A stretch of 64,000 nucleotides of DNA from a virus (IMGVR_UViG_3300048623_000062:17144-81143); one strand, 5' to 3'. Counted from the first letter of the stretch, positions 11,787 to 63,925 are shown. Program-made: numbers and translations. Notes: generated by a model from the letters alone, not told the origin.

Positions 11787-13097
11787 TCAGCCGCCGAACT
11801 TGCCGGCGAAGATGCCGTTGTAGAGTTGGCCCGGGTTGTCGTAGCTCGTACCGGCGGCCGGGATCTGCTTGGTGAACGACCTCGCCGGCACGGGCGCGAG
11901 GAACGACTGCGTCGGCACCGGCGCGAGCAGGTTGCCACCGCCACCCATGAGGCCGCCCATCGTGCCGCCGAGCTCCTCTTCGACGCCGAGTTCCTCCTCG
12001 AGGCCGAGCTCTTCCTCGACGCCATCACCGACCGCGATGTAGTCGGACAGCGTCATGCTGTCATTGATGGGCGTCGCGCCGACCGCGATGTAGTCGCCCA
12101 TCTGGACGTAGTCGGACAGGCCGATCATCGACTTGACGCTCGCCGGAGCGAACGATCGGATGATGGACTCGAGCGCGCCCAGGCCGGTGCCCAGCAGGAT
12201 GGCGTTCTTGTGCTTCGCCAGGAACCCCACCTTGCCAGCGCCCCAGTTCGCGAGCGCCATCGCACCGACCGACAGCACCGGGCCGGCGGCCGTACCGAGG
12301 AACGTCGCGCGCGCCGCGACCGAGCTCACGACGAACTTGCTGCCGTACAGCGCGGCGAACACCGGGATGGCGCTCTTGGCGATGTCGATCAGCCCCCCGA
12401 ACATGCCGGGGTTGCGACGGTAGCGGCGGTGGCCACCACGGCGCATGCGCCGCGCGCCACGGCGGCGGCGCCGCACGGACCCACGCCGACGACGCCGGCT
12501 GCGCCGCCGTCCCGGGTTCGAGGCGTACGCGCCGGGGTGCGGAACACGGAGGGTGCGGGCGCTATGCGCCGAGTGCGTGCGCGTACTGCGCCGCGTGCGC
12601 GAGCTCTTGCGGCGCCGACGACGGCGCTTCGGAGCGCTCGCCTTGCGTGCGCGGCGCCGACGACGGCGCTTCGGAGCGCTCGCCTTGCGTGCGCGGCGCC
12701 GACGGGTCCGGCCGATGCCGCCGACCTTGCCGGCCTTCCGACGAGCTGCCCAGCGCCGCTTCATGGCGCGAGACCGCTTCGATGATTTCTTCCGCTTCGC
12801 CATAGTAGCTTTGCTCCTGCGGGCTCGACGGCCACGCTTTGTGCTGGTCGACTTGTGCGCGCGCCTGCGCTTGCGAGTTGGACTCTTCTTGGATGCGCGG
12901 CGGGCCTTCCAATACCGCGCAAGCGCGGCGGGCTGCCGGCGCTTCCTGCGCGACCCGCCGGCTTTAAGATGCGCCAGGTAGCGCTTGGATAGCGCGCGCC
13001 GCTTTCGGCGGGCTGGGTTCTTGATCACCGCTCTGCCGCGGACCCGAAGCCCGCGACGCTTACCGTTGACGAAGAGGATGCCCACCTGATCGGACAT
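11787..13097 (-). CDS. Arg/Lys-rich core (DNA-condensing-like) membrane protein
   Basis: Very basic N-terminal half with NP motifs (KNPARR, SNPGRR, RRNPG), hydrophobic helices, acidic EEELG repeats. Confidence 0.7.
   Translation of the reverse strand: MSDQVGILFVNGKRRGLRVRGRAVIKNPARRKRRALSKRYLAHLKAGGSRRKRRQPAALARYWKARRASKKSPTRKRRRAHKSTSTKRGRRARRSKATMAKRKKSSKRSRAMKRRWAARRKAGKVGGIGRTRRRRARKASAPKRRRRRRARKASAPKRRRRRRKSSRTRRSTRTHSAHSARTLRVPHPGAYASNPGRRRSRRRRRGSVRRRRRGARRMRRGGHRRYRRNPGMFGGLIDIAKSAIPVFAALYGSKFVVSSVAARATFLGTAAGPVLSVGAMALANWGAGKVGFLAKHKNAILLGTGLGALESIIRSFAPASVKSMIGLSDYVQMGDYIAVGATPINDSMTLSDYIAVGDGVEEELGLEEELGVEEELGGTMGGLMGGGGNLLAPVPTQSFLAPVPARSFTKQIPAAGTSYDNPGQLYNGIFAGKFGG
12609..12704. 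repeat. 42-bp tandem repeat (about 2.3 copies) encoding RRARKASAPKRRRR
   Basis: Seen in sequence. Confidence 0.85.
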
Positions 13098-17187: not shown

Positions 17188-18911
17188 GACTTCTTCTTTT
17201 TCTTGGTCAGGAGGGCCACTGCTAGCACGCCGCCGCCCGCAACCAGCACCAGCGGCAGCACTGATTTCTTAACCACGACCGGCGGCGGTGGTGGCGGCGG
17301 TGGGGCGCCGTTGCACGCGCGCGCCGCCGCGCCAGCACCGGCATTTCCGGCCGCTGCGCCCGCAGCCGGATTGCCAACATAGGCCCCGGCAACGGCCCCG
17401 GCTGCGGCGCCGACGCCTGGCGTCGAGACGAGGTCGCACGTGAGGTCGCCGACCTTGCGGACGCCATCGGCGATGGTCTTGCCAACGACATGCGAGATCG
17501 CCTGCCCGATGCCGAGCGGGTCCGCGATCTTGATGAGCGTCTGTGGAAGCTTGATGACCGTGTTGATGATCGACCCCCACGTGCTCACGTCCGGCACCTT
17601 GGACAGCCACACCCGCAACGCCTGTGGGTTCTCCGGTGACCAGTCCTTATAGTCAGTCCCAGGCCAAAAAATCATGTGCAACTGCAGGTTGTTCCCGTTG
17701 TTGGGATCCTGGAGGTATGCGACCGCCGTCCCAGGGTTGAACATATTCCTGGCCGTCAGGAGGTTCACCTTGGTTTCTGGCCCGATCCCGACTCTCGCGA
17801 GCATAGCGAGTTCTTCGGGCCGGAACGGCCGACGATGCTCGAGGTCCTTCAGGGGGCCATCCGGCTTGGTCAGCAAAAGTTCCCCGATGGCCTTCACCTG
17901 CTCATTCGTGAGCGTGCGAAGGTCGCGGGCCGCAAAATCCGGCTTGCGGCCACCTCGGTCAAGGTGCAGCGGCTGTCCCGATCCGGCGGCCACCGTAGGG
18001 CTCTGAAAGTTCATTCCGCCGATCGAGAACGTTCCCGGCGGTGGCGGTGGCTCTGAGATGCCGCCCGGCGCACCGGTGCTCTTGGTGACGGTCCACGGTG
18101 TCCCGTCCGCCTTGCATGGCATCGGATTCGGGGCCACGCCCACGCGCACACGCACGAGATACCCACCCTTCCCATCGTCGACCCAGTTGTATCCCTCGGG
18201 CGGCAGGCAGTTGAGGGCCGGCTTGGCCGGCGCTGCCGTGTCGCCCATCGCCCCTGGTGAACGCATGTAGCACCCCAGGCCCAGGGACGTACCAGCCTGG
18301 GGTGCGACGCGACGAGCGCCCTTGGTGACGAGCTCGGCCGTGACGCCAGCGGCCATCGCGCGCGCGATTGCCAGTGGCAAGGCGTCCGCGGGCGATACAC
18401 CATGCGCGAGGTAGCGACGAAAGATGTCCTGCGTCCGGTCGTACAGCGACTTGTCGATGCGGCCCATGATCCCGCGGAGCGCGGTCTCCTGCTGGGCGCG
18501 CGGCAGCGTCGAGATCTGCGACAGGATCGCCTGAGCCGCCTTGGCGCCGTAGGTCTCCACCGCGGGGGGCAGTGGCTCGTCGCCGCTCAGCGGCTGCACC
18601 GTGACTTGACGGCCGCCGCCCGGCAGCGGGCGAGCCGCGACGAGCTTCGGGCGCTGGTTCAGCCACGGCGGGATCTTGGGGCCGGAATACGACCCCGAGG
18701 GCTGCCACTTCGTGGTGAACGTGCCCTGCCCGTACCCTTCATCGTCGATGTACTGCGGCACGGCGAAGCCGCCGTTGCCGACGCGCGGGTCATCGTAGGT
18801 GCCGCGCGGCATCTGCTTGGTGATGAACGCGCGGCGCTCGAGGCCCTCGTCGTCCACGTTGTCCGGGATCGCGTACCCCGAGGACCATGGTGGTGGTAGG
18901 TTGTATGCCAT
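17184..18911 (-). CDS. large TM-anchored virion protein
   Basis: MAYNLP; internal SLGLG and AMGD; poly-Pro then TM + KKKKK. Confidence 0.7.
   Translation of the reverse strand: MAYNLPPPWSSGYAIPDNVDDEGLERRAFITKQMPRGTYDDPRVGNGGFAVPQYIDDEGYGQGTFTTKWQPSGSYSGPKIPPWLNQRPKLVAARPLPGGGRQVTVQPLSGDEPLPPAVETYGAKAAQAILSQISTLPRAQQETALRGIMGRIDKSLYDRTQDIFRRYLAHGVSPADALPLAIARAMAAGVTAELVTKGARRVAPQAGTSLGLGCYMRSPGAMGDTAAPAKPALNCLPPEGYNWVDDGKGGYLVRVRVGVAPNPMPCKADGTPWTVTKSTGAPGGISEPPPPPGTFSIGGMNFQSPTVAAGSGQPLHLDRGGRKPDFAARDLRTLTNEQVKAIGELLLTKPDGPLKDLEHRRPFRPEELAMLARVGIGPETKVNLLTARNMFNPGTAVAYLQDPNNGNNLQLHMIFWPGTDYKDWSPENPQALRVWLSKVPDVSTWGSIINTVIKLPQTLIKIADPLGIGQAISHVVGKTIADGVRKVGDLTCDLVSTPGVGAAAGAVAGAYVGNPAAGAAAGNAGAGAAARACNGAPPPPPPPPVVVKKSVLPLVLVAGGGVLAVALLTKKKKKS
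18368..18380. promoter_or_regulatory. palindromic operator TTGCCAGTGGCAA, copy 2 (intragenic)
   Basis: Perfect match. Confidence 0.75.
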
Positions 18912-19540: not shown

Positions 19541-19616
19541 GCACAGCGTTCACCCGGGAAGATGAGGGCTGGCAGGAAGACGTCGTGGTCCCAGCGGCGA
19601 GTCGGCTGGGGTCGGG

Positions 19617-21287
19617 TTACTCGATGAGGGCGGCCCCGACCTTGCGCAGCCAGTTCTTGCCTGACTGCGATGAGAGGGGCGATTCACCCGGCAACTGTGC
19701 CACCTTCTGCATGAATAGGTCAATACCGGCCATCTCGGGCGAGTGATGCTTGCGCAGCCATGCCAGAATGTCGGCCGGGATGGCCGAGCGCCCGCTCTGC
19801 GCCACGATCTCCGGGTCCGCGCCGCCGCCGAATGCGTTCTCGAGGAACGTGATGAGCCGCTTGAGCTCGGCCGGGTCGACCACGGGGATCTCGATGGCCT
19901 CACCGTTCACGCCCGGCACGAGTTTGGGCTTCCGGGTGACCGGGCGGAGCGTGGTTCCATCCGTCGTCTTGTATCGCTGGCCAGTGGCCTCATTGACGAT
20001 GATGCGCGGACGCGCGGGCGCCTGGGCCTGCTGCGGAGCCGCCGGCGCGGGCGCCGCCCCCTTGAACACCGAGGTCACTGCCCCGATATTCTCCGGGGTG
20101 AGCGCCCCGAAGATCTTGCCGATCGTCGAGGCATCCTCTTGATCATCGTCGCCTGCGATGACCTCTTTGAGGTTCTTGATATCCTTCATCTGCTCGAGGA
20201 GCGGCTTTTCTTTCTTCTCGCGGAGTTCCTTCACCTCGATTCTAAGCTCGGCGTTGTCGCGCTCGAGGCGCCGCACGTCCGCGTTGAGCACGCTGACCTG
20301 GACGTCGTTGGTCGCCTTCATAGAGGCGATCGCCACCTCGTGCGACTGGCGTAGCGCGGTGATCTCGCGCTCGTAGCTCTGCTTGGTGTTCATCATCTCG
20401 CGCTCGTGCGCTCGCTCGGCCGCCTCCCTCGCGCGATCGTGGCGATCCTCGGCGCGCGCGATGTCCGCGTGCGCTGCCTCCTTGAGTTGGCGCACCTCTG
20501 ATTCGTGCTGCGTGCGTAGCGCGAGCACCTGGCCGTTATTGCCGTCGATGGCGTTGGTGAGGATGCGGTCCAGCACCGGGTTCTCTGGTGGCTTCGTGTG
20601 GCGCATCTCCGATAGTTCGCGGCGCATGTCGGCGATCTCGCGCTCGCGCGAGCGCACCGTCTCCTGCATCTGCTCGAACATCATCTGAACGCTTGGGTCG
20701 ATGCCACGCGGCTCGTGGTCGTCCTTGCCGTCCTTGCGGTCGAGCAACTCCTTCATCGTATCCATCGCGATCTTCGCCATCTGCGGCGACTCGCTGTGAG
20801 AGGCGGTCCCCGGGGGTGCTATGCCCGTCTTGCCAGGGATCCGTGGCTCACCGGCGATCTTCATCGTCCGATGGGCCTTGTACTCGAACGACCCCTTGGC
20901 GTTGGGCAGCATGATGCGGAGGTTGTACTTGCCACCGCCGTGCTCGTTGCGGAGGAATTCCTCGTCGAAACGCTCCTCGTACGTGTGGAGGTATCCCTCG
21001 ATGGACACCATCTGACCCGTCGCCGGGTCGCGTACTTCCCGGGGGCTCTCTCGGCGAACGACGATGCGCATGGCGCCGCCCTTGCCGATCTCGCTGAGCC
21101 AGTCATGGAGTGACTTCTCGTCCTCGGTCTTGATGGCCTGCATGACCGGGGATAGCCGCTCGGGCGCAACCGCCGCCGGCACCGGCGCGGCCTTCCCCTT
21201 GGTGCGCTTCGCCTCCGGCGGCGACTCATCGACACCAGCTTTCAGATCATCCTCGGTCATGTCGAGCGCGGCGACTTCCTTCATCAC
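19617..21287 (-). CDS. long coiled-coil protein
   Basis: Central about 170 aa of E/R/K heptads. Confidence 0.75.
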   Translation of the reverse strand: MMKEVAALDMTEDDLKAGVDESPPEAKRTKGKAAPVPAAVAPERLSPVMQAIKTEDEKSLHDWLSEIGKGGAMRIVVRRESPREVRDPATGQMVSIEGYLHTYEERFDEEFLRNEHGGGKYNLRIMLPNAKGSFEYKAHRTMKIAGEPRIPGKTGIAPPGTASHSESPQMAKIAMDTMKELLDRKDGKDDHEPRGIDPSVQMMFEQMQETVRSREREIADMRRELSEMRHTKPPENPVLDRILTNAIDGNNGQVLALRTQHESEVRQLKEAAHADIARAEDRHDRAREAAERAHEREMMNTKQSYEREITALRQSHEVAIASMKATNDVQVSVLNADVRRLERDNAELRIEVKELREKKEKPLLEQMKDIKNLKEVIAGDDDQEDASTIGKIFGALTPENIGAVTSVFKGAAPAPAAPQQAQAPARPRIIVNEATGQRYKTTDGTTLRPVTRKPKLVPGVNGEAIEIPVVDPAELKRLITFLENAFGGGADPEIVAQSGRSAIPADILAWLRKHHSPEMAGIDLFMQKVAQLPGESPLSSQSGKNWLRKVGAALIE

Positions 21288-23367: not shown

Positions 23368-23466
23368 GGGGTACAGATTCGCCAGGGTCGGCCGACCCAC
23401 CCTGACGAGCCGATACTGCTACCGAGCCACACCGCACCGCCCCTTGGGGGAAGGAGTTCTGAGATG
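23364..23466 (+). repeat. family-1 intergenic hairpin/RBS repeat, copy A
   Basis: Nearly identical to 24823-24926. Confidence 0.9.
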
Positions 23467-24822: not shown

Positions 24823-24926
24823 GTAGGGGGTACAGATTCGCCAGGGTCGGCCGACCCACTCTGACGAGCCGATACTGCTACCGAGCCAACACCGCACCGC
24901 CCCTTGGGGGAAGGAGTTCTGAAATG
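24823..24926 (+). repeat. family-1 repeat, copy B
   Basis: See copy A. Confidence 0.9.
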
Positions 24927-33350: not shown

Positions 33351-34682
33351 ATGCGTTTCGATGACGATACTGACACCACCCCCGAAGAAGAGATCGATGA
33401 AATCGGCCCGGAAGTGACCGACGAGATCGAAGGCGACCCCGACGACAACGAGATCCCGGACCCGGAAGTCGTTCTAGTTCCAGACCCGGAGGCCGACTCG
33501 CCCGAGGAGCCGGTGCCGACCAAGGGGAATGGCCGCTCCAAGAAGCGGGCTTCGAAGCCGAAGCCGGGATCGGATGACCTCACGCTGGTGCCGACACGCT
33601 CGTTCGCCAAGCAGATTCCGGTCGCCGCCGAAGTCGTGGAGCCGCCGACTCCGGCCGAGGAGCGTGAGGTCCGGTACGAGCGCTTGAGTTCGATCCGGAT
33701 CGAATACAAGCACTGGCAGAACCCGCGCCAGCGCACGGGGCTCGAGGACGCCAAGATCAAGGCTCTTGCCGAGAGCATCTCGGCCCGCAGCACTACCGAT
33801 GAGACCGGCGTTGTCACGGCCGGCCTCAAGACGCCGCTGGACGTCGTCGCCATCAAGTCCAACGGCGGCACCGTCCTCCTGGCGATCGACGGTCAGCGCC
33901 GGACGCGCGCGATGGAGTACCTGGGTCTACCGAGCGACACGCTCGTCCCGGTGTTCTACTACAAGCCGGAACCCATCGACTGGACCCCAGCGGTTGCCGC
34001 CGAGCTCCTGCTCGAGGTCGTCGAGATGGCCTCCACGCGCGAGGGGCTGTCGAGCTTCGAGCTCGCGGACGTCGCCCAGCGACTCCGCTCGTCCAAGGAC
34101 GAGGACACCGGCAAGGAATACACGATGGCGAAGATCGCCAAGGCGATCGACCGCTCCGAGTCGTGGTGCTCCAAGATCCTGGGCGCGATGAAGACCGCCA
34201 CGCCTGCGCTCTTGCTGCGGTGGGAGAAAGGCGAGGTCACGGACGAGCAATTTAAGGATTTGGCCGCGACCAAGGAGCCAAGCAAACAGAAGTCCGCCCT
34301 CAACGCCGTCATCGAGGCGCGGACGACCGGCGACACGCGCGGCGCGCGCACCCTCGCCAAAGAAGCGAAGGTCATCGCAAAGCGCGACGAGCCAAAGTCG
34401 AAGCCAAAGAAGCCGGCCAAGGGCGAGCAGACGTCGATCGATACGCCTCCTCCCATGAGGCCAACCCCGGGTGCGATCCTCGACGACCTGATCCGCGTGG
34501 CCGACGATCGCCCGCCGACCCACGACTACGTGCGCGGCATCATGGACGGCTTGCGATATGCGCGCGGCGGCATCGACCCGAGGAACTTCGGTAAGCCGTG
34601 GGGGGTATATCTGGGGCTCGTCATGGGCGAGTCGCCCACGAAGGCGAAGCCGGCCAAGGGCGCCAAGAAGCCCAAGAAGTAG
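33351..34682 (+). CDS. ParB/KorB-family DNA-binding protein
   Basis: QNPR, IDGQRRTRA and HTH-like MAKIAKAIDRSESWCSKIL; AAGGAG SD (ORF track start 33213). Confidence 0.8.
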   Translation: MRFDDDTDTTPEEEIDEIGPEVTDEIEGDPDDNEIPDPEVVLVPDPEADSPEEPVPTKGNGRSKKRASKPKPGSDDLTLVPTRSFAKQIPVAAEVVEPPTPAEEREVRYERLSSIRIEYKHWQNPRQRTGLEDAKIKALAESISARSTTDETGVVTAGLKTPLDVVAIKSNGGTVLLAIDGQRRTRAMEYLGLPSDTLVPVFYYKPEPIDWTPAVAAELLLEVVEMASTREGLSSFELADVAQRLRSSKDEDTGKEYTMAKIAKAIDRSESWCSKILGAMKTATPALLLRWEKGEVTDEQFKDLAATKEPSKQKSALNAVIEARTTGDTRGARTLAKEAKVIAKRDEPKSKPKKPAKGEQTSIDTPPPMRPTPGAILDDLIRVADDRPPTHDYVRGIMDGLRYARGGIDPRNFGKPWGVYLGLVMGESPTKAKPAKGAKKPKK

Positions 34683-34884
34683 ACGCTTCTCAGTGCGCTC
34701 GGACTGAGACTAGAACTGGCACTGACTCTTTGAGCGTAGCTCGGTACGATTTGAGCCCGAGACGGAAAATTCGCCAGTACTCCTCGGGCTCGCCGAGACG
34801 GGCAATGCAGATCCGAGACGGCCTTCTGCTGCCGTGACAGCCACTCCTGGTTGACCTGACCATTGTTCCGCGCGACCATGCAGC

Positions 34885-35103: not shown

Positions 35104-35216
35104 CCCGCCGCCCTCCACCTGGCTGGGCACGCTGAGCGCGCCGACGCTCCCGATCATTTAGAACACCCCAGCGTTCCAATGGCTGGGACTGCACCACCAC
35201 TCTCACGGAGAAATCG

Positions 35217-35627: not shown

Positions 35628-35915
35628 ATGCCATCCACCGCCAGCAAGGTTCTCAACATCTCCGCCGTCGCCCTCGAGGCCGTCGGCGCCGTCGCAGCGC
35701 ACGCCAAGACAGTGCTCGGCGGCAGCCACACCGTCGACCAGTTGTCGGACATCGCCAAGATGTTGGTGGCGGTTGTCGAGGCAGTCCGACATGGCCTCGA
35801 GACCACCGCGACCGCCGCCGATGTCGAGGCATCCCTGACCTCACTGCTCACCGGCATCACGTCGAACAACTCGATCGTCGACGCGATGATTGACGAGAAG
35901 TTCAAGCAAGGGTAG
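35628..35915 (+). CDS. small helical protein
   Basis: ORF track. Confidence 0.6.
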   Translation: MPSTASKVLNISAVALEAVGAVAAHAKTVLGGSHTVDQLSDIAKMLVAVVEAVRHGLETTATAADVEASLTSLLTGITSNNSIVDAMIDEKFKQG

Positions 35916-36076
35916 CCAGCGACCCTGATCGCTGGACGCCATCCGAGTGAAGCCAGAGGTAGCCCGATGCCTTACCAAACCGGGAACTCCACCTGTCGAG
36001 GACCTGGATGTATCGGGACTAGGCGCGCCATGGGGAATCGGGACTTGAGCGGAGTGGTTGTCGTATACTAGGCGTC

Positions 36077-39526: not shown

Positions 39527-39880
39527 ATGCCAGCTGCACTGACCCTTCCGGAGGCCGCCGGGGCCGCGTTCGACAACCTTCAACTCAAGTGGGTATCGGA
39601 CAATCTCAAGAGCAGCATGACGCTGTTTTCGAACGGCATCTCTGGTGTCGGGTCCGATCAGCAGGCGGACTCTCACCCGATCCGGAACTGGTTCGCGCTG
39701 ATCGCGAACCTCGCCAATCAGATGCCGTCGTTTGCGGTCGCCATCGGCGATCTGACGCTGTCGGCCGAGTACATCTACCGGATTTGCTGGGTCACCCAGC
39801 AGTTGCTCGACCAGTCCCTCATCACGTCCGGGCAAGCGGCGGCGATCCTCATCGAGTACAACGCGGCGTTCACTATCTAG
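39527..39880 (+). CDS. helical hypothetical protein
   Basis: GAGG SD. Confidence 0.65.
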   Translation: MPAALTLPEAAGAAFDNLQLKWVSDNLKSSMTLFSNGISGVGSDQQADSHPIRNWFALIANLANQMPSFAVAIGDLTLSAEYIYRICWVTQQLLDQSLITSGQAAAILIEYNAAFTI

Positions 39881-39885
39881 GCTTG

Positions 39886-39932
39886 CTCGGCAGCCTTTGG
39901 CCGAGACCCAACTCGCCAGCCTTGGCCGAGAC
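39886..39932 (+). CRISPR. non-canonical repeat unit(s): CTCGGC-loop-GCCGAG-AC plus duplicated 3' arm
   Basis: Same stem as 55555 and 56973 units. Confidence 0.45.
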
Positions 39933-41959: not shown

Positions 41960-41987
41960 GTCGGATGGCAAGGGGATGCACCATCCG
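41960..41987 (-). CRISPR. isolated stem-loop-AC unit (CGGATGG/CCATCCG-AC)
   Basis: Fits the unit pattern; single copy. Confidence 0.3.
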
Positions 41988-42238
41988 GGACCTACATTCA
42001 ACAGACTCGAGCCGTTGCCCGGCTTTCATCGCTTCCGGCGCTGTTGGTCGCAGGCGTTGAGGTCGCTGACCTATTTTGGGCAACTGGCGCTGTAGGTGTC
42101 GTTGCACCATGGCTGCTTGCTCGTCGCCACCGCCCCTGCGGCCACCTGCGTGAGGTGGGCTGTGGTGAGCGTGCGGATGGTCTCGAGCTTCAGGGCGACG
42201 CGCGGTCTGGTGTTCTTCATCCCCCAGACTAGCACGCC

Positions 42239-42589: not shown

Positions 42590-42714
42590 TGGCCGTGGTG
42601 TACCATGGCGCTGCCCAAGCCGACCGCAGTAGGTCTCAGGTAAGAGCCGGGTCCTGAGGCCCACGTACCCACCGTGGAATCGTCCCTGTCAGCTACGGTC
42701 GGCCCGGCTTGGGT

Positions 42715-52981: not shown

Positions 52982-53581
52982 ATGGCGCGACTCCGTCACC
53001 GGCGGTACCGAAGGAACCCAAGTAGCGGCAGCGCGCCCAAGCGCAACCCGCCGATGATGACGGACCTGGTGGAGTTCATCGGTCCGGGCTTCGCGAGCTT
53101 CGCCGTGACGCGCTTCGCGACACGCCTGGCTGCGCAGCAGTTGGGAGCGCGCAAGCCGTCCTGGGGAAAGCATGCGGGTGCGCTGGTGTCGGCTGGCGCG
53201 TTTCTGAGCGCGTGGTTCCTGGCGCATCGGTGGAAGTGGCTGGAGCGCTGGCACACGCCGATCGTCGTCGGCTCCGCGATCGCGGCGATTCAGTCGATCG
53301 TGCAACTCTACATCCCCCGCATTGGGTGGATGCTCGACGCAGTCCCCGAGGAGATCACGGCGCCGCCGCAGACGGCTGGCGAGCTCGCGGCGACGCAACT
53401 CTCGAAGCTCGGCCTGCGGGCCGTGGACGAGGACCCCAACGAGTACACGTACAATGACGAGTACGACCCCGGGCTCTACTCGAAGCCACAGCAGCCTCCG
53501 GGCGTACAGGCGGACGTGTCCGATCTCGCAATGGACGACGCGGTCGGCCAGAGCGGCAATCTCGGGGTGTTCCAAAACTAG
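52982..53581 (+). CDS. RRNP-motif membrane protein, related in architecture to the core protein
   Basis: RHRRYRRNP...KRNP, hydrophobic helices, acidic tail. Confidence 0.7.
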   Translation: MARLRHRRYRRNPSSGSAPKRNPPMMTDLVEFIGPGFASFAVTRFATRLAAQQLGARKPSWGKHAGALVSAGAFLSAWFLAHRWKWLERWHTPIVVGSAIAAIQSIVQLYIPRIGWMLDAVPEEITAPPQTAGELAATQLSKLGLRAVDEDPNEYTYNDEYDPGLYSKPQQPPGVQADVSDLAMDDAVGQSGNLGVFQN

Positions 53582-53670
53582 CCCGGCGGTCTGCTGGCCG
53601 GGACGACGCAGGGCGCTCGCCTTTGCGTGCGCCCTGCCGACGACGGCTGAGCCGGGACGAGGAGAATCGG

Positions 53671-54021
53671 ATGTCTTACTTTCGACGACCACAACGAGCG
53701 CTCTCCGGCGGTCCGCCGGCCTGGTACCGTGCCATGGGAGGCGTCTCAAGTATGCCGCCGCGGCGCAAGTTGCCGCAGGTCCAGTCGCTCGGATCCCTCG
53801 GTGACGCGCCGTCGGATCCGACCACGCTCTCCACGCCCACGGTCACCGACCCGACCACTGCGTGGCAGGCGGAGGTTTTGCTCAACCTGCAGGCGGGCGT
53901 GAAGACCCTGCAGATGGCCGAGATGCAGAAGTGGCTCCAGATCGCCGCGACGCTGGCCATCCCGCTGTCAGCGGCGGTGTGGAAGGCGATCTTCCGCCGC
54001 GGCGCAGACATCACGTCGTAA
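53671..54021 (+). CDS. leader-bearing virion-like protein
   Basis: MSYFRRPQRALSGG...SLGD; C-terminal hydrophobic helix + RR. Confidence 0.7.
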   Translation: MSYFRRPQRALSGGPPAWYRAMGGVSSMPPRRKLPQVQSLGSLGDAPSDPTTLSTPTVTDPTTAWQAEVLLNLQAGVKTLQMAEMQKWLQIAATLAIPLSAAVWKAIFRRGADITS

Positions 54022-54025
54022 GCGG

Positions 54026-54080
54026 CCAGCGGCTTTTGTCGCTGGACAAGGGGTAGCCAGCGACTTTTCCGTCGCTGGAC
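54026..54080 (+). CRISPR. two tandem stem-loop-AC units (CCAGCG.C-loop-GTCGCTGG-AC)
   Basis: Homologous to the 57239-57264 minus-strand unit. Confidence 0.5.
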
Positions 54081-55406: not shown

Positions 55407-55552
55407 CTGTGGGCGAGCCTATTCTCGCTGGGCCGCTACGTCGAGGCGCGCGGAAATCGATGGACGACGTGGGTCGTCGACGCGTAGATTGAACGCCTTC
55501 GGTAACTCGACGCCGTATTCGATCGAGGCGGGACGCTGGTCGGATCGCGACA

Positions 55553-55641
55553 AGCTCGGCCGCTTCTCAGCCGAGACGACTTTGACACCTGGACGCCAGG
55601 CTCCCTATCGGTCCGGACTGGACGACGCGCTTGGCCTGGAC
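55553..55641 (+). CRISPR. unit AGCTCGGC-loop-GCCGAGAC plus further GAC-ended segments
   Basis: Stem shared with 39886 and 56973; TTGACA follows within the putative spacer. Confidence 0.5.
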
Positions 55642-56950: not shown

Positions 56951-57268
56951 GTCTCGGCAATATGGTGCGCCCGTCCCGGCGCGGAAAGCGGCCGAGCTCG
57001 CGTTCTGTTCACGTCCGAGGTCATCGCGCGCAGTGTTCGGTCATCGCTGCAAAGACGCGATGCTGTCGTTGCCGCGCAGCCTGCGACAGGAATCCATCAG
57101 GTCCATCCGTGAAGCGCAGATGGATGCGCCTTGCGATCAACGCTGCAGTCCGTTCGCGAGGCACGTGATCTCTTGGTCCGTTCCGGATCGAGGGCCGCCC
57201 TCAGCGCGAACGGCTACGCTTGCTCCGCTCCGGCTACAGTCCAGCGATCCAGAGTCGCTGGCTACGCT
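56951..57268 (-). CRISPR. non-canonical array A: 8 GAC-ended units with heterogeneous stems
   Basis: Unit ends at 57239, 57176, 57148, 57101, 57040, 57020, 56973 and 56951. Confidence 0.6.
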
Positions 57269-57660
57269 AGGACGCTCGCGAGCACGTGAAAGTCGCTCTC
57301 GCATGCCCAGAACGAGAGAGCGGCCTTCATGTTCGATGCGCCGGCCATGGGGAGGAGGCCGCGACACAGCCCTGCGATGAGCGCGATCGCCTCCGGCGTG
57401 CGCCCGGTCTCGTCGATGGGCATCACGCCAAACGACGTCGACCACGCCGCCTTGCATCTGACGATCTCCACGCAGGATCGTTGCATGGCGTCGAACCCGA
57501 ACCGTGTGGCGACGTAGGCCATGGCGCCAGCGATCGCCGCCGCGGTGTCGTTCGCGTTGAGCATTCCGATCGGAACTCGGGCGATGAAGCCCGGCGACAC
57601 GGAGGTAGCGAGAGAGCGGACGTCGGGGATGTCGTTCTTCCAGTGGTCGATGGCGGTCAT
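57262..57660 (-). CDS. hypothetical protein between arrays A and B
   Basis: AGGAG SD, ATG 57660. Confidence 0.7.
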   Translation of the reverse strand: MTAIDHWKNDIPDVRSLATSVSPGFIARVPIGMLNANDTAAAIAGAMAYVATRFGFDAMQRSCVEIVRCKAAWSTSFGVMPIDETGRTPEAIALIAGLCRGLLPMAGASNMKAALSFWACESDFHVLASVLA

Positions 57661-57711
57661 CACAAACTCCTGTGGTTGCAGATTGCACACGGTGGCGTAC
57701 CTCGTCAAGTC

Positions 57712-57724
57712 TTGCCAGTGGCAA
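57712..57724. promoter_or_regulatory. palindromic operator copy 10, 3 bp upstream of a TTGACG (-35-like) on the minus strand
   Basis: Minus strand reads CTTGCCACTGGCAAG-AC-TTGACG. Confidence 0.8.
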
Positions 57725-57739
57725 GCCGAGCGGATGCAG

Positions 57740-57938
57740 GTCCCAGGCGTATAAGAACCCTGGGGTGTCGTTGCCATCCCGCTGTCCCGATTACGAGAGA
57801 GCCTCGTTCGGGGCCGGGTCCCGATACTCCGAGTAGTCCATCGGGCTGGACTTTCAACACATGGCCCGGCAGGCAAGGCGCCGGGCGGCCGTCACTGGCA
57901 ACCGATCGACTCCCTCGTCCCGACGCTATGATGTCGGG
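57740..57938 (-). CRISPR. non-canonical array B directly downstream of the Cas12m-like gene
   Basis: Four CCC-stem-GGG-AC units ending at 57917, 57818, 57784 and 57740. Confidence 0.6.
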
Positions 57939-59887
57939 ATATCCGTTGCCAGGTCTCCGCCTTTCTTGCGACGTCGCAGGATCTGCGAGCGGGCCGGCTT
58001 CTTCGCGGTGTCATCCGGCGGCGCCTCGAGTTGCGCCTTGGCGCGGCCGAGTATGTTTATACAGGCGTTGGGGTCCTGGTCCCAGGATGCCAAGCATGCC
58101 GAACACGTCACGATGCGCGGGTCGCCCGGCCGACGATCGAACTCGTTGAGTGCGCCGCATGGAGCGCACGTCCGAGTGATATTGTCGGACTCGACGGTGA
58201 TGGCGTACTTCGACTCGAAGGCGTTTACCACGGTCTGCCGAAGCAACGATCCGGCGACGAGGCGCTGGGCGTACTTGATCTGCGTGATCTCGACGTCCTC
58301 ACTCTCCGGTGCTGGCGATCGCTGCATCTGGGATAGGTTGGTATCCTCGACGACGACGTAGCGGTACCGCCGGGCCAACTCGCATCCGAGCAAGCGATAG
58401 AGTTCACGCCGGTGGTTGAGTGCGCGACGCCGCATGCCGCTCTCGTAGCGCTCGAGGTGCTCGTCGCGGTAGCGCCACTTCTCGAGCACGGCGTGGGCTT
58501 CCTCGTCACCCTTGAACCGGCTCGATCGCCAGCGGAAGGTGAACTCCCGGATCTTCGCGAGCGACTTCCAGGAGTGCGCGTACGTCGTCCCCCGCACGAA
58601 CCAGTTGGGCACGTGAGAGACCACGCCACGCTCGCTGGTGTCGATGTAGAGGCACATACGCTTGAAGCTCTCGCCGAGGACAGAGTCCCAGTTGGACAGG
58701 TGCCCGTCAGGCGTGCTCTGCGTCGTCGTCTGGTCAGGCGCAAATCCGATGACCGCCTGCTGTACTTTCGCGTAGTGCTCATCACGGATCGCCCGCGCCA
58801 TCGGCACGAACACCGCCTTCATGGCTTCGAAGTCCCGATCCCGGAACCCCTGCAGGGACTCGCTCTTGGCGATCGGGTCGATGACGCCCTCCATGGGGAG
58901 CACGATCTCTTTCTGATAGCCGTCATCACCAACGGCATATCCGGCCCGCAGGCTGCCGTCGGGCCGGCGGCTGAACCCGAGGTTGATGGCGACCATGCCG
59001 GACTCGGGCACGGCGCGCCGGCGCCAGTCCTCCGGCGTGTCGACGAGGATGTGGACCTCCCAGGTCATCATGCGGCAGTCGTGGGGGCGCGAGATGACGG
59101 TGGCCGCCTTGACCACGCTTCCCTCGGGTAGCGGCCTGTGCATGATCATCGGGAACTTCGCCCAGATGGGCTTTTTCTTCTCGTCCGAGCCGATGCGCAG
59201 CCAGAGCATCGTGCGTGACAGGCGGCGGCGATCGCCGCGCTTGGTGCTCAGCGTGTCGTACGCTCGCGGGTCGACCGGGTCGATGCGGATCTGGGTGTCG
59301 GTGCCCCAGAGGTCCTTGAGCTCGATGCCGCCCTGGATCTGCACCCCGATCCGGCCGCCGCGGGTGGCGTGCACGAACTCCGGCATCCCCTTCCCCTTGC
59401 GGGCGGCGTCCGCCGCTGCCTCCTGCAGGAGGTAGGTGCCCCAGTACACGCCGCACTTCGCCCGCTCCGCCTTAATGCGATCCCGGGCGTGCAGGTCGAG
59501 CGCGTTGAGTTGATCCTTCACGGCGCTGTCGGAGATGAGGACCTTCTTGGCCTCGTTCAGCCGGGCACGGATCTCCTTGATCCTCGCCCCGAGGTCACGG
59601 ATTGCCGTCCGGACCTCGGGGGTCTCGTTGCGCCGGCGAGCCTGCTTGCGGCCAGCCTGCATGTCCTCTCGCGCGGCGTCACGCGCGGCCACCGCGGCCT
59701 CGAGCTCGAGGCGGATCGCGTCGACATCCGGGTGATGGGACAGGATCCGGCTCGCTTCCTTGCGGCGATCGCGCTCGATCTCGATGAGCATGTTGCGGTA
59801 GCGGTGCGCGAGCTTGAGTTGGGTCTCGATGGATTCGCCGCCCTGGATGGGCGGCCGAAGGCCGTAGACGAAGATTCGGGGCGGCAT
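57926..59887 (-). CDS. cas12m: Cas12m (type V-M)-like RNA-guided effector, RuvC-I Asp replaced by Asn
   Basis: QLKLAHRYRN, long coiled coil, YWGTY, GRIGVQ, MHRPLP, VAINLGF, VVVEDT, TRTCAPCG...CSAC...WDQDPNACINI. Confidence 0.75.
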   Translation of the reverse strand: MPPRIFVYGLRPPIQGGESIETQLKLAHRYRNMLIEIERDRRKEASRILSHHPDVDAIRLELEAAVAARDAAREDMQAGRKQARRRNETPEVRTAIRDLGARIKEIRARLNEAKKVLISDSAVKDQLNALDLHARDRIKAERAKCGVYWGTYLLQEAAADAARKGKGMPEFVHATRGGRIGVQIQGGIELKDLWGTDTQIRIDPVDPRAYDTLSTKRGDRRRLSRTMLWLRIGSDEKKKPIWAKFPMIMHRPLPEGSVVKAATVISRPHDCRMMTWEVHILVDTPEDWRRRAVPESGMVAINLGFSRRPDGSLRAGYAVGDDGYQKEIVLPMEGVIDPIAKSESLQGFRDRDFEAMKAVFVPMARAIRDEHYAKVQQAVIGFAPDQTTTQSTPDGHLSNWDSVLGESFKRMCLYIDTSERGVVSHVPNWFVRGTTYAHSWKSLAKIREFTFRWRSSRFKGDEEAHAVLEKWRYRDEHLERYESGMRRRALNHRRELYRLLGCELARRYRYVVVEDTNLSQMQRSPAPESEDVEITQIKYAQRLVAGSLLRQTVVNAFESKYAITVESDNITRTCAPCGALNEFDRRPGDPRIVTCSACLASWDQDPNACINILGRAKAQLEAPPDDTAKKPARSQILRRRKKGGDLATDIPTS

Positions 59888-59903
59888 GGAGCGTGGGGGC
59901 CTT

Positions 59904-61043
59904 TCAGCGCGCGGGGGTCGGCGGGTTCTGGCGAGCCAGGATGGGCAGGATGATCAGGTTGACGAGGTCGCAGAACTCCGTCGACGCGGTGACCGAACGG
60001 GCGAGCGCGGTGAAGACCTTGCACAGGTTCCGCTGGCGCGCGGCGACCGAGTCCTGGAGATAGAGGGTCGCGCCCTCGGTCAAACTTTCCGAGAGCATGA
60101 CGGTGTCCGACGGGGTGAGTTCGTCGAACGGATCGATCCCGGTCGGCCTTTCGATCACGTCGAGCACCTGGCTGGTGACTGTCGCCTTGGGCTTGTTGGC
60201 GAGCCACTTCGCGATGTCCCTGGGGCTGGCCAGCAGCCCCAGCATGTAGCGAAGCTCGGTCGCCGCGGCGTGGTCGCGGCCGGCCGTCTCGACGCACGGG
60301 GCGCCGCTCTCGCGGCTGCCGTTGCTCGACTCGAGCTCGACGATACGCCGCTTCAGCATGTAGCGCGCCTGGTCCCAGCGCTGCGCGCGCTCGATGATCT
60401 CGGTGCCGTCCTTGTCCCACGCCGGGACCTGCATGGCGCTGGCGACGCGCTGGACGATCAGGCGGAGGTGCGTGACCTCCTCCAGTAGGGCCGCCTCGGC
60501 CTGGCGTCCGAACGACATCGCCTCGGCGAGGGAGTCCCCTTTTGACGAGGGGGTTCCATCATCCCCGACGTCGCCGGGGTTCTTCAGCTTGAGGAGTGCC
60601 GCGTGGATAGCGCGCGCGGCATCGCCTGGTGTCTGGCCGACCACATCAATACCGAGCTCGCGCCCGATATCGACCAGTAGTTCGATGCCGAACAGCGCGG
60701 CCTCGGCCACGGTTCGTTCGAGCGGCGGCTTCGATAGCGCGACGGACGCCGCGAGATTGCCAGGCTGCGGCTTGGCATCGTCGCCCAGCCGGGCGATCTC
60801 CTGATCGACGAGGTCGTCGAAGGTGTCGCGTGCTTCCGCTCGGACGGAGGTTCCCGGAAGCCCCTCGGCATCTCGGAGATCCTCGATGGCCTTTGCGAGC
60901 GGCGCCTCGTACTTCGAGACGTTGTCGGAGGTGATGCCGCTCGGGCGCGGGATCTTGGCGCCGAGCCGGTTCGCGATCATCGCGATCAGTGAGCAGGCGG
61001 CGGTGAAGTTGGCGGCGGTCTTGTCGTTCTGAGATTTGGTCAC
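59904..61043 (-). CDS. helical hypothetical protein
   Basis: AAAGGA SD before GTG 61043. Confidence 0.7.
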   Translation of the reverse strand: MTKSQNDKTAANFTAACSLIAMIANRLGAKIPRPSGITSDNVSKYEAPLAKAIEDLRDAEGLPGTSVRAEARDTFDDLVDQEIARLGDDAKPQPGNLAASVALSKPPLERTVAEAALFGIELLVDIGRELGIDVVGQTPGDAARAIHAALLKLKNPGDVGDDGTPSSKGDSLAEAMSFGRQAEAALLEEVTHLRLIVQRVASAMQVPAWDKDGTEIIERAQRWDQARYMLKRRIVELESSNGSRESGAPCVETAGRDHAAATELRYMLGLLASPRDIAKWLANKPKATVTSQVLDVIERPTGIDPFDELTPSDTVMLSESLTEGATLYLQDSVAARQRNLCKVFTALARSVTASTEFCDLVNLIILPILARQNPPTPAR

Positions 61044-61072
61044 GGTATTCCTTTGCGGGTCACGCAGGCTTC

Positions 61073-61190
61073 GTCCCAGCAGTAGACCGCTGGGCACGTA
61101 TTGAGTCGAGGTTGACGCAGGTCCACATTCGCGACGCTGTCCACGGCGCGCGAGGCGCGTCCCGGGATGAGTGGCGCACCACTCCACGGG
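61073..61190 (-). CRISPR. intergenic cluster C of stem-loop-AC units
   Basis: CCCG-loop-CGGG-AC, two GTGGAC ends, CCCAGC-loop-GCTGGG-AC. Confidence 0.45.
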
Positions 61191-61254
61191 ATTGAGGCCA
61201 CGTGGCTGGCCTTGATGTCAAACGCAAGGGCGCGGCTCGCAGAGCGCCGCGCTG

Positions 61255-61743
61255 CTAGAGCGCCTTCACCTTGTGGAACTCTCGGTCGTAGAGTTGCCCA
61301 TCGGCGTCATCGATCCTGAACTGCAGGTCGCGGTTCAAGCTCAGCGCCCCCTTGAGCATGCTCACGAGTGCGGTAAGCGCCTCGGCAGCCTCGTGGCCGC
61401 GCAGGTCAGAACGCAATCCGTGCACGATGGTAGCGAAGAGGTCGTCCTCGCGGCCGTCGGTGAGGCTACCCTGCGCGGCGTCGACGTCGCGCGCGGCCTT
61501 GAGCAGCGTGAACGCGAGCCGCCGCGCGGCCTGCGGACTGGCGCTGAACCCGGCGCCGGACATCTGGGTCACCGGGCCGATGACGTCCGGACTCCGGCTT
61601 GGCGTTCCGATGATGATCCGCGCCTCGTCCGGGTAGGTGTCGCCCACGTCCATGATGGCGTGCACGGCGAGCACCGTCGGGCTCTGGCCATCGTCGGTCA
61701 GTAGACCGCTGATGTGATTGTAACTCTTGTCTTTCTTCGACAT
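61255..61743 (-). CDS. hypothetical protein
   Basis: Same GCAAAGGAATA SD as the 61043 gene. Confidence 0.7.
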   Translation of the reverse strand: MSKKDKSYNHISGLLTDDGQSPTVLAVHAIMDVGDTYPDEARIIIGTPSRSPDVIGPVTQMSGAGFSASPQAARRLAFTLLKAARDVDAAQGSLTDGREDDLFATIVHGLRSDLRGHEAAEALTALVSMLKGALSLNRDLQFRIDDADGQLYDREFHKVKAL

Positions 61744-61848
61744 CTCATATTCCTTTGCTGCACGTCAGTCGACGCCCCGGAAGACACAGAGGCACCAGGC
61801 CCCAGCGTTCAAGGGCGCCGGGGTGCCCTTGTTTTCAATCCTGCGCAA

Positions 61849-61871
61849 GTCCAGAGCGGTGACATCTGGCT
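61849..61871 (-). CRISPR. single unit AG-CCAGA-loop-TCTGG-AC
   Basis: Fits the consensus; 5-bp stem only. Confidence 0.35.
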
Positions 61872-61883
61872 GCCCTCGCGGTA

Positions 61884-62018: not shown

Positions 62019-63425
62019 TCAGGGCGTTGGGCATCCGGATCCCACGCAGACGGGGACCGAAGCGAGGTTCAGGCCTAGACGCGGCGCGACGATCGGCTGG
62101 GGCGAGCCGTCCAGGGCTGTGACGGCCGTCAGATTGCCCACCACGACGTTTCCATCGACCTCGAGACCTACGACAGGGGTGATGGTTCCGCGCGCGTAGA
62201 CGGCAGTACGGCCGGCCCCGGGGACCGTCCAGGTCATGTGGTTCCGTAGCACCTTCAGGCGTGAACTGCTCTCGCTGTACACCCCGAAGCTGGGCGTGGA
62301 CTGTGTCATGGCATTGTCCGACACGATCGCGTCGTCACAGGTGCCGGTGCCGTGCGGCACGATGCGCACCATCGGCCCCGGAGAACCCTCGCGCACGAGC
62401 TTGTTGTCGGTCACGCGCAGAACGGACAGGACCGTCGAGCCGTCCGGCGCAGTGCTCGTCGCGCTGCAGGTGTTGCTGACCTCGATGACGCCCTGGCCGT
62501 CCTTGCCCGGGACCAGCGGTGCCCTCGAGCGCATCCAGATGGTCTCGTCGTGGATGGACACGCCGGACGAGCGGACGACCGAGATCCCGCGGCCGATGCC
62601 GATGTGCTGGTTGTTGTAGATCTCGACGTTGGCGGCCGTGGTGATCGCGATGTCGTAGTCGCCCTGCGTGCTGGGGCCGCTGATGAACTTGTTCTCGGTG
62701 ATGGTGACGTCCATGACCTCGAGGCCCGGCGCCCAGCCGGTCACCTCCATGTCGAAGTGCTGGTCCGCCGTTGCGCCCTTGCAAGTGTTGCGGCGGAACA
62801 TGAGACCGCGGACGCCGCGCTGCACGCCGACGCACGAGCGAGCTCCATCAAGGATATTGTCCTCGATGACCACGTCCATCAGGAGCGTGCTGAGGCCGTC
62901 GCCCAGCAGGCGGATGCAGTCGCCGCGGCGGGTGACGCCGCGCGGGTGGATGCACTCGCTGTTGCGGATGGTGAGGCCGACGATCGGCGTGCAGGTGCCC
63001 ATGGCCTGCGAGCAGATGCCGTTTGTGCCCCACAGGTGGGTCTGCTCATCGGTGTTCCAGGCGTTGGTGCTGGTGAGCGTCACGCCATCGAACACGATGT
63101 TCTTGGCGCCGGCATTGATGGCCCACAGGGTGGTCGCCTGCGCGCCCTGGTCACCCACGAGGTCCACGAACGATCCCCCCTTCACGCCCTGCACGGTGAG
63201 GCCGTTATGGTGCGTGCTCACAGCTGCAAACCGGTCCCAGATGCCAGGACCGGAGCCGCGGCGGTGCACGCGAAGGTGGCCGCGCGGGATGCATAGCGTC
63301 CCGCGCGGCGGTGTCGCGTCGATCGCCGCCTGGAGTTGCGCGGTGTCGTCGAGGTCGTCGGTCGGATCGGCGCCGAAGTCGACAGGGTTGATGCAGGTCG
63401 TGGCGAGCGCCAGTGCGAACAGCAT
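62019..63425 (-). CDS. right-handed beta-helix (pectate-lyase-like/GH) protein with signal-like N-terminus
   Basis: NPVDFGADP...DDTAQLQAAID...LCIPRG; repeated I.I.N/D rungs. Confidence 0.8.
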   Translation of the reverse strand: MLFALALATTCINPVDFGADPTDDLDDTAQLQAAIDATPPRGTLCIPRGHLRVHRRGSGPGIWDRFAAVSTHHNGLTVQGVKGGSFVDLVGDQGAQATTLWAINAGAKNIVFDGVTLTSTNAWNTDEQTHLWGTNGICSQAMGTCTPIVGLTIRNSECIHPRGVTRRGDCIRLLGDGLSTLLMDVVIEDNILDGARSCVGVQRGVRGLMFRRNTCKGATADQHFDMEVTGWAPGLEVMDVTITENKFISGPSTQGDYDIAITTAANVEIYNNQHIGIGRGISVVRSSGVSIHDETIWMRSRAPLVPGKDGQGVIEVSNTCSATSTAPDGSTVLSVLRVTDNKLVREGSPGPMVRIVPHGTGTCDDAIVSDNAMTQSTPSFGVYSESSSRLKVLRNHMTWTVPGAGRTAVYARGTITPVVGLEVDGNVVVGNLTAVTALDGSPQPIVAPRLGLNLASVPVCVGSGCPTP

Positions 63426-63577
63426 TCCGTCAGTATCGGATGCGACGACAGCCGTGCCCAGCAAAATGTAGGGTCGCTGGGAACCAATTGATGCAATCGC
63501 CTAAGTCTCGCTGCTGAGGCCAGCGAGCAAACCTTGGATAGGACCTGGTCTCGCAGGATGGGATGCAGGGTTGCGAG

Positions 63578-63925
63578 CTACCCGTTACCGTACTTCGCCG
63601 GCTTCGTCTCGAGCGCTTTGCAGGCTCGGTCGGCGATCTCTATGGCGGTCGCGTGCGACCCCGTGTCGTCCCCGATGACACCCACGCACGCCGCAAAGAC
63701 AGCATCCCATGTCCGCTCGTGCATAGCGGCGTCGTGGGTATGGATATCGCCGAGGTCGCGGCCGGTCTCCACGAGCTCGACGATGGCCTGCGCGACGGCG
63801 TCCTGGTTGTTTGCGGCGTTGAACCACTGACTGCCGTGGCGTTCGCCCATGACGCGGTCGATGACGTCCATCACCTGCTTGTGGGTTACGTGCGGCAGAC
63901 GCTCAGCGATCGGCTTGACGGCCAT
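63578..63925 (-). CDS. hypothetical protein
   Basis: ORF track. Confidence 0.6.
   Translation of the reverse strand: MAVKPIAERLPHVTHKQVMDVIDRVMGERHGSQWFNAANNQDAVAQAIVELVETGRDLGDIHTHDAAMHERTWDAVFAACVGVIGDDTGSHATAIEIADRACKALETKPAKYGNG

Follow-up and report, generated by a model that had tools for sequence, protein, structure and literature searches.

A virus-encoded Cas12m without a CRISPR array, accompanied by scattered structure-conserved units that resemble degenerate type V-M repeats

The 64,000-nucleotide (nt) stretch of viral DNA analysed here (IMGVR_UViG_3300048623_000062:17144-81143, the window) is the last 64 kb of an 81,143-nt virus record (G000) and encodes a 653-residue protein of the Cas12m type, the effector of type V-M CRISPR systems. 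All unit and gene coordinates are positions within this window. The virus has no identical-repeat array, and approximately 25 to 30 short units are scattered over its genome, differing in spelling while keeping one fold. Each unit is laid out as a 5′ CAA(G/C) motif, a pseudoknot strand of 3-5 bp, a 2-nt linker (often AG), a C-G-closed hairpin of 5-8 bp and a terminal AC. The units are under structural selection and are limited to those members of the virus family that carry cas12m. They are, with high confidence, degenerate full-length type V-M repeats, that is, Cas12m-type handles, and it is probable that Cas12m serves the virus on its own transcripts or that the units are used as single guides.

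The gene for the effector is as follows.

57926-59887, minus strand: cas12m, 653 residues, with RuvC residues N302, E514 and D603-D605 and a CCCC zinc finger (C574, C577, C595 and C598).

The predicted protein aligns over residues 8-614 with the solved Cas12m chain 23vw_A (expect value, E, 7.4e-55) and has further full-length matches to Cas12m2 (8hhl/8hio, E 7e-20) and GoCas12m (8pm4, E 9e-17). Pfam returned just a sub-threshold match to the Cas12f1-like TNB, and the NCBIfam TnpB models scored far under their cut-off (35.6 vs 350 bits). In a Foldseek search with the AlphaFold model, for which the predicted local distance difference test score is 85, the best four matches were all Cas12m structures (template modelling score, TM, 0.55-0.78), whereas Cas12f and TnpB reached a TM by query of only 0.31-0.38. 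The model thus agrees with the Cas12m fold (a WED domain, a REC domain with a long coiled coil and a RuvC domain with an inserted zinc-finger TNB), and the four zinc-finger cysteines are conserved. By sequence and by modelled fold (TM 0.69-0.78), the protein is a true Cas12m, as a prediction made earlier from the sequence alone (the original prediction) had proposed from its architecture, and is not TnpB-like.

The RuvC-I motif is AINLGF (Asn302), compared with AIDLGW in 23vw_A, and the acidic residues are kept in RuvC-II (E514) and RuvC-III (D603/D605), exactly as originally read. The residue at RuvC-I is Asn in 29 and Asp in 7 of 36 relatives, and the published RuvC triads of Cas12m comprise the classes DED, NED, DND, HDD, HEK/HQK and NDD (PMC10442227, PMC11013384). 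Since Asn is the majority state in the relatives and both N-E-D and N-D-D classes have been published, it is ordinary for the family and not new. The Cas12m orthologues tested so far, including N-D-D ones, bind DNA without cleavage, and their processing of precursor CRISPR RNA (pre-crRNA) is independent of RuvC (PMC11013384; bioRxiv 10.64898/2026.03.26.714355). By analogy, the viral Cas12m is probably nuclease-dead and non-cutting, which makes the earlier description of it as such a reasonable one, and it would be expected to bind double-stranded DNA in a manner dependent on a protospacer adjacent motif (PAM), without cleavage, as do the N-D-D PmCas12m and the other tested orthologues.

No identical-repeat array was detected in the whole 81-kb genome by Tandem Repeats Finder or by a scan of k-mer spacing, and neither the window nor the genome contains an adjacent array of near-identical repeats of ~36 nt with spacers of ~36 nt. 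Searches for Cas1 and Cas2 in the G000 genome found neither. The absence of both array and adaptation genes had been noted from the sequence and is corroborated by these searches.

The relationship of the units to type V-M repeats was established through other viruses. Approximately 20 other viral cas12m loci in IMG/VR have canonical arrays directly downstream of the gene, whose 36-nt repeats all end in stem-loop-GAC and have in common a nearly invariant 5′ CAA motif. These canonical repeats contain a second helix, formed by the 5′ flank with the start of the loop, which covaries. A covariance model (R1) was built solely from the canonical repeats of 18 other viral Cas12m arrays, with the hairpin alone specified. 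On G000, R1 gave 12 matches at E ≤ 0.31, against ~0.3 expected, 10 of which are intergenic sense units, and in the resulting alignment the CAA(G/C) motif is present. Although this alignment was not fitted to the pseudoknot, 87% of the hairpin and pseudoknot pairs on it are formed, compared with 62% in shuffles and at most 43% in slid controls; for the three core pairs of the pseudoknot the share of sequences forming them is 73-87%, with both-sided changes at every pair. When the flanks of one unit were paired with the loops of another in a permutation test, the real combinations stood out for sense intergenic units (z = 4.4) and not for coding or antisense hairpins with AC (z at most 1); for single genomes z was 5.8 in G000 and 5.6 in its relative G005.

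The scaffold of the units agrees with that of solved CRISPR RNAs (crRNAs) in the flank-loop pseudoknot, the C-G-closed hairpin and the terminal AC. The solved PmCas12m crRNA has two helices, pairing -28..-26 with -17..-15 and -23..-20 with -6..-3 (bioRxiv 10.64898/2026.03.26.714355), and in the Cas12m2 crRNA, too, the closing pair is C...G, with A and C after it (PMC10442227). The original prediction had compared the unit at 55553 with the ending of the Mycolicibacterium mucogenicum repeat; the literal repeat was not found in the text of the paper. The published numbering fits the form given there, with A(-24) G(-23), then C(-22)..C(-17) pairing with G(-8)..G(-3), and finally A(-2) C(-1) (PMC10442227). 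Units at orthologous positions in relatives whose proteins are 95% and 79% identical keep the fold through compensatory changes: stems are retained, and the loops and downstream sequence drift. In unit A1, for example, L003 has CCAGTA/TACTGG instead of CCAGCGA/TCGCTGG, which amounts to two compensatory pairs. The proposal that structure rather than sequence is conserved in these repeats is thus borne out by covariation and compensatory change, and their homology to type V-M repeats by the R1 matches.

To place the units, genes were called with a codon model, all maximal perfect hairpins with a stem of at least 6 bp were collected, and gaps flanked by same-strand genes were taken as the intergenic set. 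C-G closure followed by AC was found in 22 of 101 intergenic hairpins on the sense strand and in 2 of 101 on the antisense strand; the corresponding figures in coding sequence are 22/568 and 17/568 (3-4%). The excess over chance on which the earlier proposal depended is therefore real. Eleven units, as is usual for the first one in a gap, begin 0-9 nt past the upstream stop codon, often with TAG serving as the “AG” before the stem, while the distance to the next start codon is variable (0 to 260 nt); position is thus tied to the upstream stop. Unit density peaks around cas12m (53.5-63.6 kb). The units are present where they had been placed originally, but extend genome-wide, beyond the surroundings of cas12m. 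The reported reuse of stems is likewise real for CTCGGC, which occurs three times, and CCAGCG has four copies rather than the three claimed. Searches for terminators with T tracts between 53000 and 64000 found 3 sites, against 4.5 expected, none of which coincides with a unit; the units have no T tracts and are not terminators of that type.

The units in the vicinity of cas12m and elsewhere in the window are as follows, with 5′ parts, stems, pseudoknot strands and R1 scores where these were recorded.

57917-57950, minus strand: unit B1, CCCGAC/GTCGGG followed by AC; overlaps the cas12m stop codon; the CGGGAC end is invariant in L002 and L003.
57818-57857, minus strand: unit B2, stem CCCGATG, pseudoknot AGTC/GACT.
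57784-57824, minus strand: unit B3, CCCGA/TCGGG followed by AC, with a 17-nt loop containing a small inner hairpin.
57740-57776, minus strand: unit B4, 5′ motif GGCAAC, stem CCCAGG, R1 match at E 0.27.
57239-57273, minus strand: unit A1, abutting the TAG stop of a gene for a 132-residue protein, stem CCAGCGA.
57176-57225, minus strand: unit A2, 5′ part GCAAGCGTAG, stem CCGTTC, pseudoknot AGCGT/GCGCT, with a second copy of the 3′ arm ending at 57148.
57101-57135, minus strand: unit A3, 5′ part GCAAGGCGCAT, stem CCATCTG, in a stretch of ~80 nt missing from L002.
57040-57074, minus strand: unit A4, 5′ part GGCAACGACAG, stem CATCGC, pseudoknot GAC/GTC, R1 E 0.15.
56951-57008, minus strand: unit A5, stem CTCGGC with a 32-nt loop, pseudoknot GCG/CGC, the last of a five-unit cluster.
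61073-61106, minus strand: unit between the genes for a 162- and a 379-residue protein, stem CCCAGCGG; the unit of the relatives in that gap has the stem CGCGGC.
61849-61881, minus strand: unit with stem CCAGA, which is CCAGAG in L002, L003 and L004.
63505-63539, minus strand: unit with 5′ part CCAAGGTTTG, stem CTCGCTG, R1 E 0.078.
63548-63589, minus strand: unit abutting a TAG stop, stem CTCGCA, pseudoknot GGGT/ACCC, conserved in L002-L004.
55543-55577, plus strand: unit with 5′ part GACAAG, stem CTCGGC, R1 E 0.1.
54014-54080, plus strand: tandem pair with stems CCAGCGGC and CCAGCGAC; the 5′ part of the second unit is CAAGGGGTAG.
53570-53604, plus strand: unit abutting a TAG stop, stem CCCGGC; the best R1 match, E 0.0028.
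42633-42670, minus strand: unit with stem CTCAGG, pseudoknot TGGG/CCCG.
41960-41999, minus strand: unit of lower confidence, CGGATGG/CCATCCG followed by AC.
39874-39932, plus strand: unit with a degenerate second copy, stem CTCGGC, pseudoknot AGGCT/AGCCT.
35904-35937, plus strand: unit abutting a TAG stop, 5′ part GCAAGGGTAG, stem CCAGCGA, pseudoknot AGGG/CCCT, R1 E 0.31.
35155-35189, plus strand: unit with stem CCCAGC, pseudoknot GAAC/GTTC.
34677-34819, plus strand: three to four units after the gene for a 443-residue protein, stems CTCAGT, CTCGG and CTCGGG.
19588-19622, minus strand: unit of lower confidence, stem CCCAGC, 6 nt after the upstream stop.

The five units of the A cluster (56951-57273), downstream of cas12m, have array-like spacings of 15, 13 or 41, 28 and 31 nt, and the cluster looks like a decayed array. 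Several units are trailed by a second copy of the 3′ arm and AC alone, ending at 57148, 57020 and 39932. The ~80 nt at 57085-57165 (minus strand), which hold A3 and one such second copy, are absent from the 95%-identical L002, which shows a recent gain or loss of a unit. A hairpin at 61231-61254 (minus strand, CGCGGC/GCCGCG), directly after the TAG stop of the 162-residue gene, ends in CC here and in AC in L002 and L004, and resembles a unit whose AC tail was lost only recently.

The distribution of units was compared across the virus family. G000 is rated 94% complete as a virus record, and its close relatives in IMG/VR have complete genomes, 79-86 kb long and ending in direct terminal repeats, in agreement with the viral origin assumed originally. 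Homologues of a backbone protein (33 in number) led to two complete family genomes that lack cas12m, G001 and G002. The family tree has three clades, (G000, G005) with cas12m, (G001, G002) without and (G003, G004) with it; the complete genomes have 52-59 of 129 proteins in common, at ~50% identity. G001 and G002 have the same number of proteins in common with G000, at the same identity, as does the cas12m-carrying G004. Scattered units were found in every cas12m-carrying relative examined, and persist across lineages whose proteins are ~50% identical. Intergenic hairpin-AC units number 27, 19, 50 and 29 in four cas12m-carrying genomes, compared with 2 in G001 and 3 in G002, where homologues of the genes flanking cas12m lie side by side. 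Some relatives combine the two forms of repeat: L035 has a 12-repeat canonical array as well as solo units whose stem is identical or similar, and L038 a three-repeat mini-array with about eight solo units. The closest relatives, L002-L004, resemble G000 in having no canonical array.

That Cas12m handles the virus’s own messenger RNAs (mRNAs) through the units is given roughly an even chance (about 0.5). This reading is favoured because the units lie in sense orientation inside operons, are anchored to stop codons and show selection on the handle alone. In the proposed mechanism, the CRISPR array would have been replaced in this lineage by some 25-30 degenerate type V-M repeats, the viral Cas12m would bind these handles on polycistronic mRNAs, and the bound protein would work on the RNA itself, where it would cut or shield the junctions between genes and so decide what becomes of the cistrons on either side. 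No separate set of DNA guides acting in trans would be needed, and the cluster beside cas12m may still yield short single-repeat guides. A more far-reaching version, put forward only tentatively, is that a CRISPR effector has become a regulator of the virus’s own transcripts, with the array lost and ~30 structure-only handles at cistron 3′ ends, where Cas12m would punctuate, protect or silence mRNAs or form DNA roadblocks in cis rather than target foreign DNA.

Several observations weigh against the action of Cas12m on viral transcripts. Cas12m is known to cleave pre-crRNA within the repeat, upstream of the scaffold (PMC11013384, PMC10442227), and for units that abut a stop codon such cleavage would probably hit the upstream gene’s final codons, which is seemingly costly. 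The presence and absence of units count as a single independent contrast, G001 and G002 being sister taxa. The scattered hairpins of the distant cas12m-carrying G003 and G004 are short-looped and give no pseudoknot signal, and therefore may work differently. In G004, a canonical array has a spacer that is 100% identical over 35 nt to the virus’s own cas12m (the two copies lie at L053 2414-2448 = G004 11461-11495 and at G004 18327-18361); the matching site lies just after the RuvC-I motif, and its 5′ flank is CCGAGG, not a T-rich PAM. This match suggests autoregulation by DNA binding, and DNA-level targeting of viral genes therefore occurs in the family.

Minimal hairpin clusters were also observed in G003 (L005 5780-5961, 9271-9477, 11612-11935 and 12658-12723), 10-17 nt apart and with some of the “spacers” repeated; the hairpins are of the form G-CTCGNN, a loop of 3-6 nt, NNCGAG-AC, with no pseudoknot signal, and may represent a different, reduced handle form.

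The original prediction was of RNA-guided repression with a guide from every unit, so that the 15-20 nt after GAC, transcribed as a single-repeat crRNA gene, would direct the non-cutting Cas12m to the DNA of the host or of competing elements and prevent its transcription. For type V crRNAs a single repeat 5′ of the guide suffices, Cas12m has its optimum at guides of ~17 nt (bioRxiv 10.64898/2026.03.26.714355), and in three relatives A1 and A2 are separated by 15-18 nt, with a different sequence in L003. The same scaffold is present in canonical arrays of L035 and G004, one spacer of G004 matches that virus’s own cas12m, and TldR and CreR/Cracr illustrate gene regulation by short fixed guides. 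Searches for targets, however, gave no signal. Within the viral genome, 16-mers allowing at most 3 mismatches found a self-target for 30 of 49 units, compared with 40 of 49 random controls, and exact 11- and 12-nt seeds following the units matched at the level of offset controls in the four cas12m-carrying genomes. An exact scan of IMG/VR with two candidate guides returned only the orthologous site in a close relative, and canonical spacers of L035 and L038 gave chance matches only against six family genomes and 14 loci. The sequence after GAC is the least conserved segment between G000 and G005 (0.74 identity vs 0.85 for stems), full-length repeats in tandem clusters leave in places only ~8-15 nt between them, and position is tied to the upstream stop codon. 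It is also improbable that ~30 arbitrary intergenic sequences should each have a target. The claim that every unit is a guide is accordingly not upheld, and single-repeat guides as the general function are considered unlikely. The preference for the virus’s own mRNAs over guides follows from the lack of targets, the low conservation of the spacers and the placement in cis, tempered by some use at the DNA level.

Three further explanations were considered. The units could be RNA decoys that mimic host type V-M repeats and soak up or redirect host Cas12m, given that solitary repeat units of viruses are known as anti-CRISPRs (PMC10651486) and viral crRNA-like RNAs are known for type V-A (bioRxiv 10.1101/2024.10.29.618823). 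Published solitary repeat units are, however, typically unlinked to cas genes and often have their own promoter (PMC10651486), whereas this virus has its own cas12m, its units are missing exactly where cas12m is missing, tens of copies lie inside mRNAs, and their diverse spelling is unlike the mimicry of one host repeat; decoys are thus quite improbable. About as improbable is that the hairpins are unrelated to Cas12m and act as terminators, RNA-stability elements or sites for another factor. Their location directly after stop codons on the sense strand is that of 3′ stabilisers or terminators, but the dearth of T tracts, the agreement of the AC tail, CAA motif and pseudoknot with the Cas12m scaffold, and the absence of units from equally related sister genomes without cas12m all speak against it. 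The least probable explanation is that the units are functionless remnants of an array that decayed and was dispersed. The hairpin at 61231-61254, without the AC tail kept in relatives, and the gain or loss of units between 95%-identical relatives would fit decay; compensatory changes in both helices, the strong strand bias, persistence across lineages that are ~50% identical in protein and the greater conservation of stems than of loops between G000 and G005 would not.

The gene between clusters B and A, and its neighbour on the other side of cas12m, do not belong to the system.

57262-57660, minus strand: gene for the 132-residue protein, the homologues of which adjoin the 379-residue gene in G001 and G002.

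As partners of Cas12m the 132- and 379-residue proteins were rejected, because both genes are present and adjacent in the genomes that lack cas12m. Other genes of the window code for an integrase, for a lysozyme of the GH25 type and for a DUF5131 protein. The majority of the large proteins have no Pfam family match. A blastn comparison of the window with a phage collection gave no match, Rfam and transfer RNA scans of the window gave nothing, and a search of genome contigs revealed relatives only at 28-37% identity, in metagenome-assembled genomes of several phyla. A 468-residue protein (62019-63425, minus strand), 88-95% conserved in L002-L004, has weak pectate-lyase and beta-helix matches, and its sequence suggests a receptor-binding or depolymerase fibre.

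A second family of repeated elements was distinguished from the units, and one of its copies, initially a candidate unit, was rejected as such.

57709-57725, strand-neutral: copy of the palindrome TTGCCASTGGCAA, beside a TTGACG -35-like hexamer; excluded from the units.

This 13-bp palindrome occurs in 10 copies, compared with 0 expected, approximately every 5 kb (7268, 18368, 22686, 28270, 33167, 38688, 43151, 48667, 51910 and 57712). The copy at 57712, upstream of the 132-residue gene, is conserved in L002 and L003, and a one-base variant occupies the same place in L038. The palindromes probably make up a network of operators or partition sites that is distinct from the units. Another repeated element, the 20-mer GAGCCGATACTGCTACCGAG following a CAGGGT/ACCCTG hairpin, is located at junctions of small plus-strand genes (23371-23426, 24830-24885 and 27467). 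Tandem repeats were also observed within a gene for a 943-residue protein (123-129 nt, at 679-1454) and at 12609-12715 (42 nt, 2.3-2.6 copies).

Because CRISPR finders seek identical repeats, they would call this virus array-less, and dozens of effector-binding-type handles conserved in shape alone would be invisible to them. If Cas12m acts on the handles, the virus would offer a natural example of a class 2 effector controlling a virus’s own genes, and a natural test of the extent to which shape, and not sequence, is read in the crRNA scaffold, with a bearing on the design of guides for the compact Cas12m tools. The cas12m-carrying and cas12m-less sister genomes form a ready pair for comparison.

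The system most closely resembles type V-M as described for MmCas12m2, GoCas12m and PmCas12m (PMC10442227, PMC11013384, bioRxiv 10.64898/2026.03.26.714355), in the sequence and predicted fold of the effector, the non-canonical triad with Asn, the lack of adaptation genes and a crRNA scaffold composed of a pseudoknot, a C-G-closed hairpin and AC. It differs in that there is no array of identical repeats: repeats are scattered genome-wide on the sense strands of mRNAs, the stem, loop and pseudoknot are spelled differently in each unit, and many units abut stop codons. A virus-borne Cas12m with an adjacent array has been described in the myxophage MV-1, with a reported D-E-D triad (bioRxiv 10.64898/2026.09.14.751636). 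MV-1, Rctr197k (KX853510) and the ~20 IMG/VR loci likewise carry a viral cas12m without cas1 or cas2 and have repeats that end in stem-loop-GAC, but theirs are canonical 36-nt repeats that recur every ~72 nt immediately downstream of the gene.

Solitary repeat units, Racr and viral crRNA-like RNAs (PMC10651486; bioRxiv 10.1101/2024.10.29.618823) are similarly single repeat-like units in viral intergenic DNA, capable in those cases of binding Cas proteins. They mimic the host repeat, typically have no link to cas genes and frequently carry a promoter of their own, whereas here tens of copies tied to a virus-encoded effector lie inside mRNAs, which places the units outside that class. TldR (bioRxiv 10.1101/2023.11.30.569447; 10.1101/2025.07.22.666180) is also a phage-borne, nuclease-dead protein of the TnpB/Cas12 lineage, with a regulatory role; it uses one long omega-type guide RNA beside its gene and has a defined host promoter as target, whereas the present protein is Cas12m by sequence and modelled fold, with many short handles. 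A single omega-RNA of the TnpB/TldR kind was rejected: B1 overlaps the cas12m stop codon but is a short Cas12m-type handle. In the CreR/CreA mini-CRISPRs (bioRxiv 10.1101/2023.03.10.532045), degenerate repeats are kept for effector binding and have a regulatory role, with one unit per locus and a partial match to a nearby promoter; no such seed match rose above control in the viral genome. Virus-borne Cas12m with an array, solitary viral repeats and TldR are thus already known, and none of these describes tens of structure-only, mRNA-embedded repeats tied to the virus’s own effector. What is new is the complete loss of the array, handles diverse in sequence and conserved only in structure, covariation of the pseudoknot, and the contrast in presence and absence between genomes with and without cas12m.

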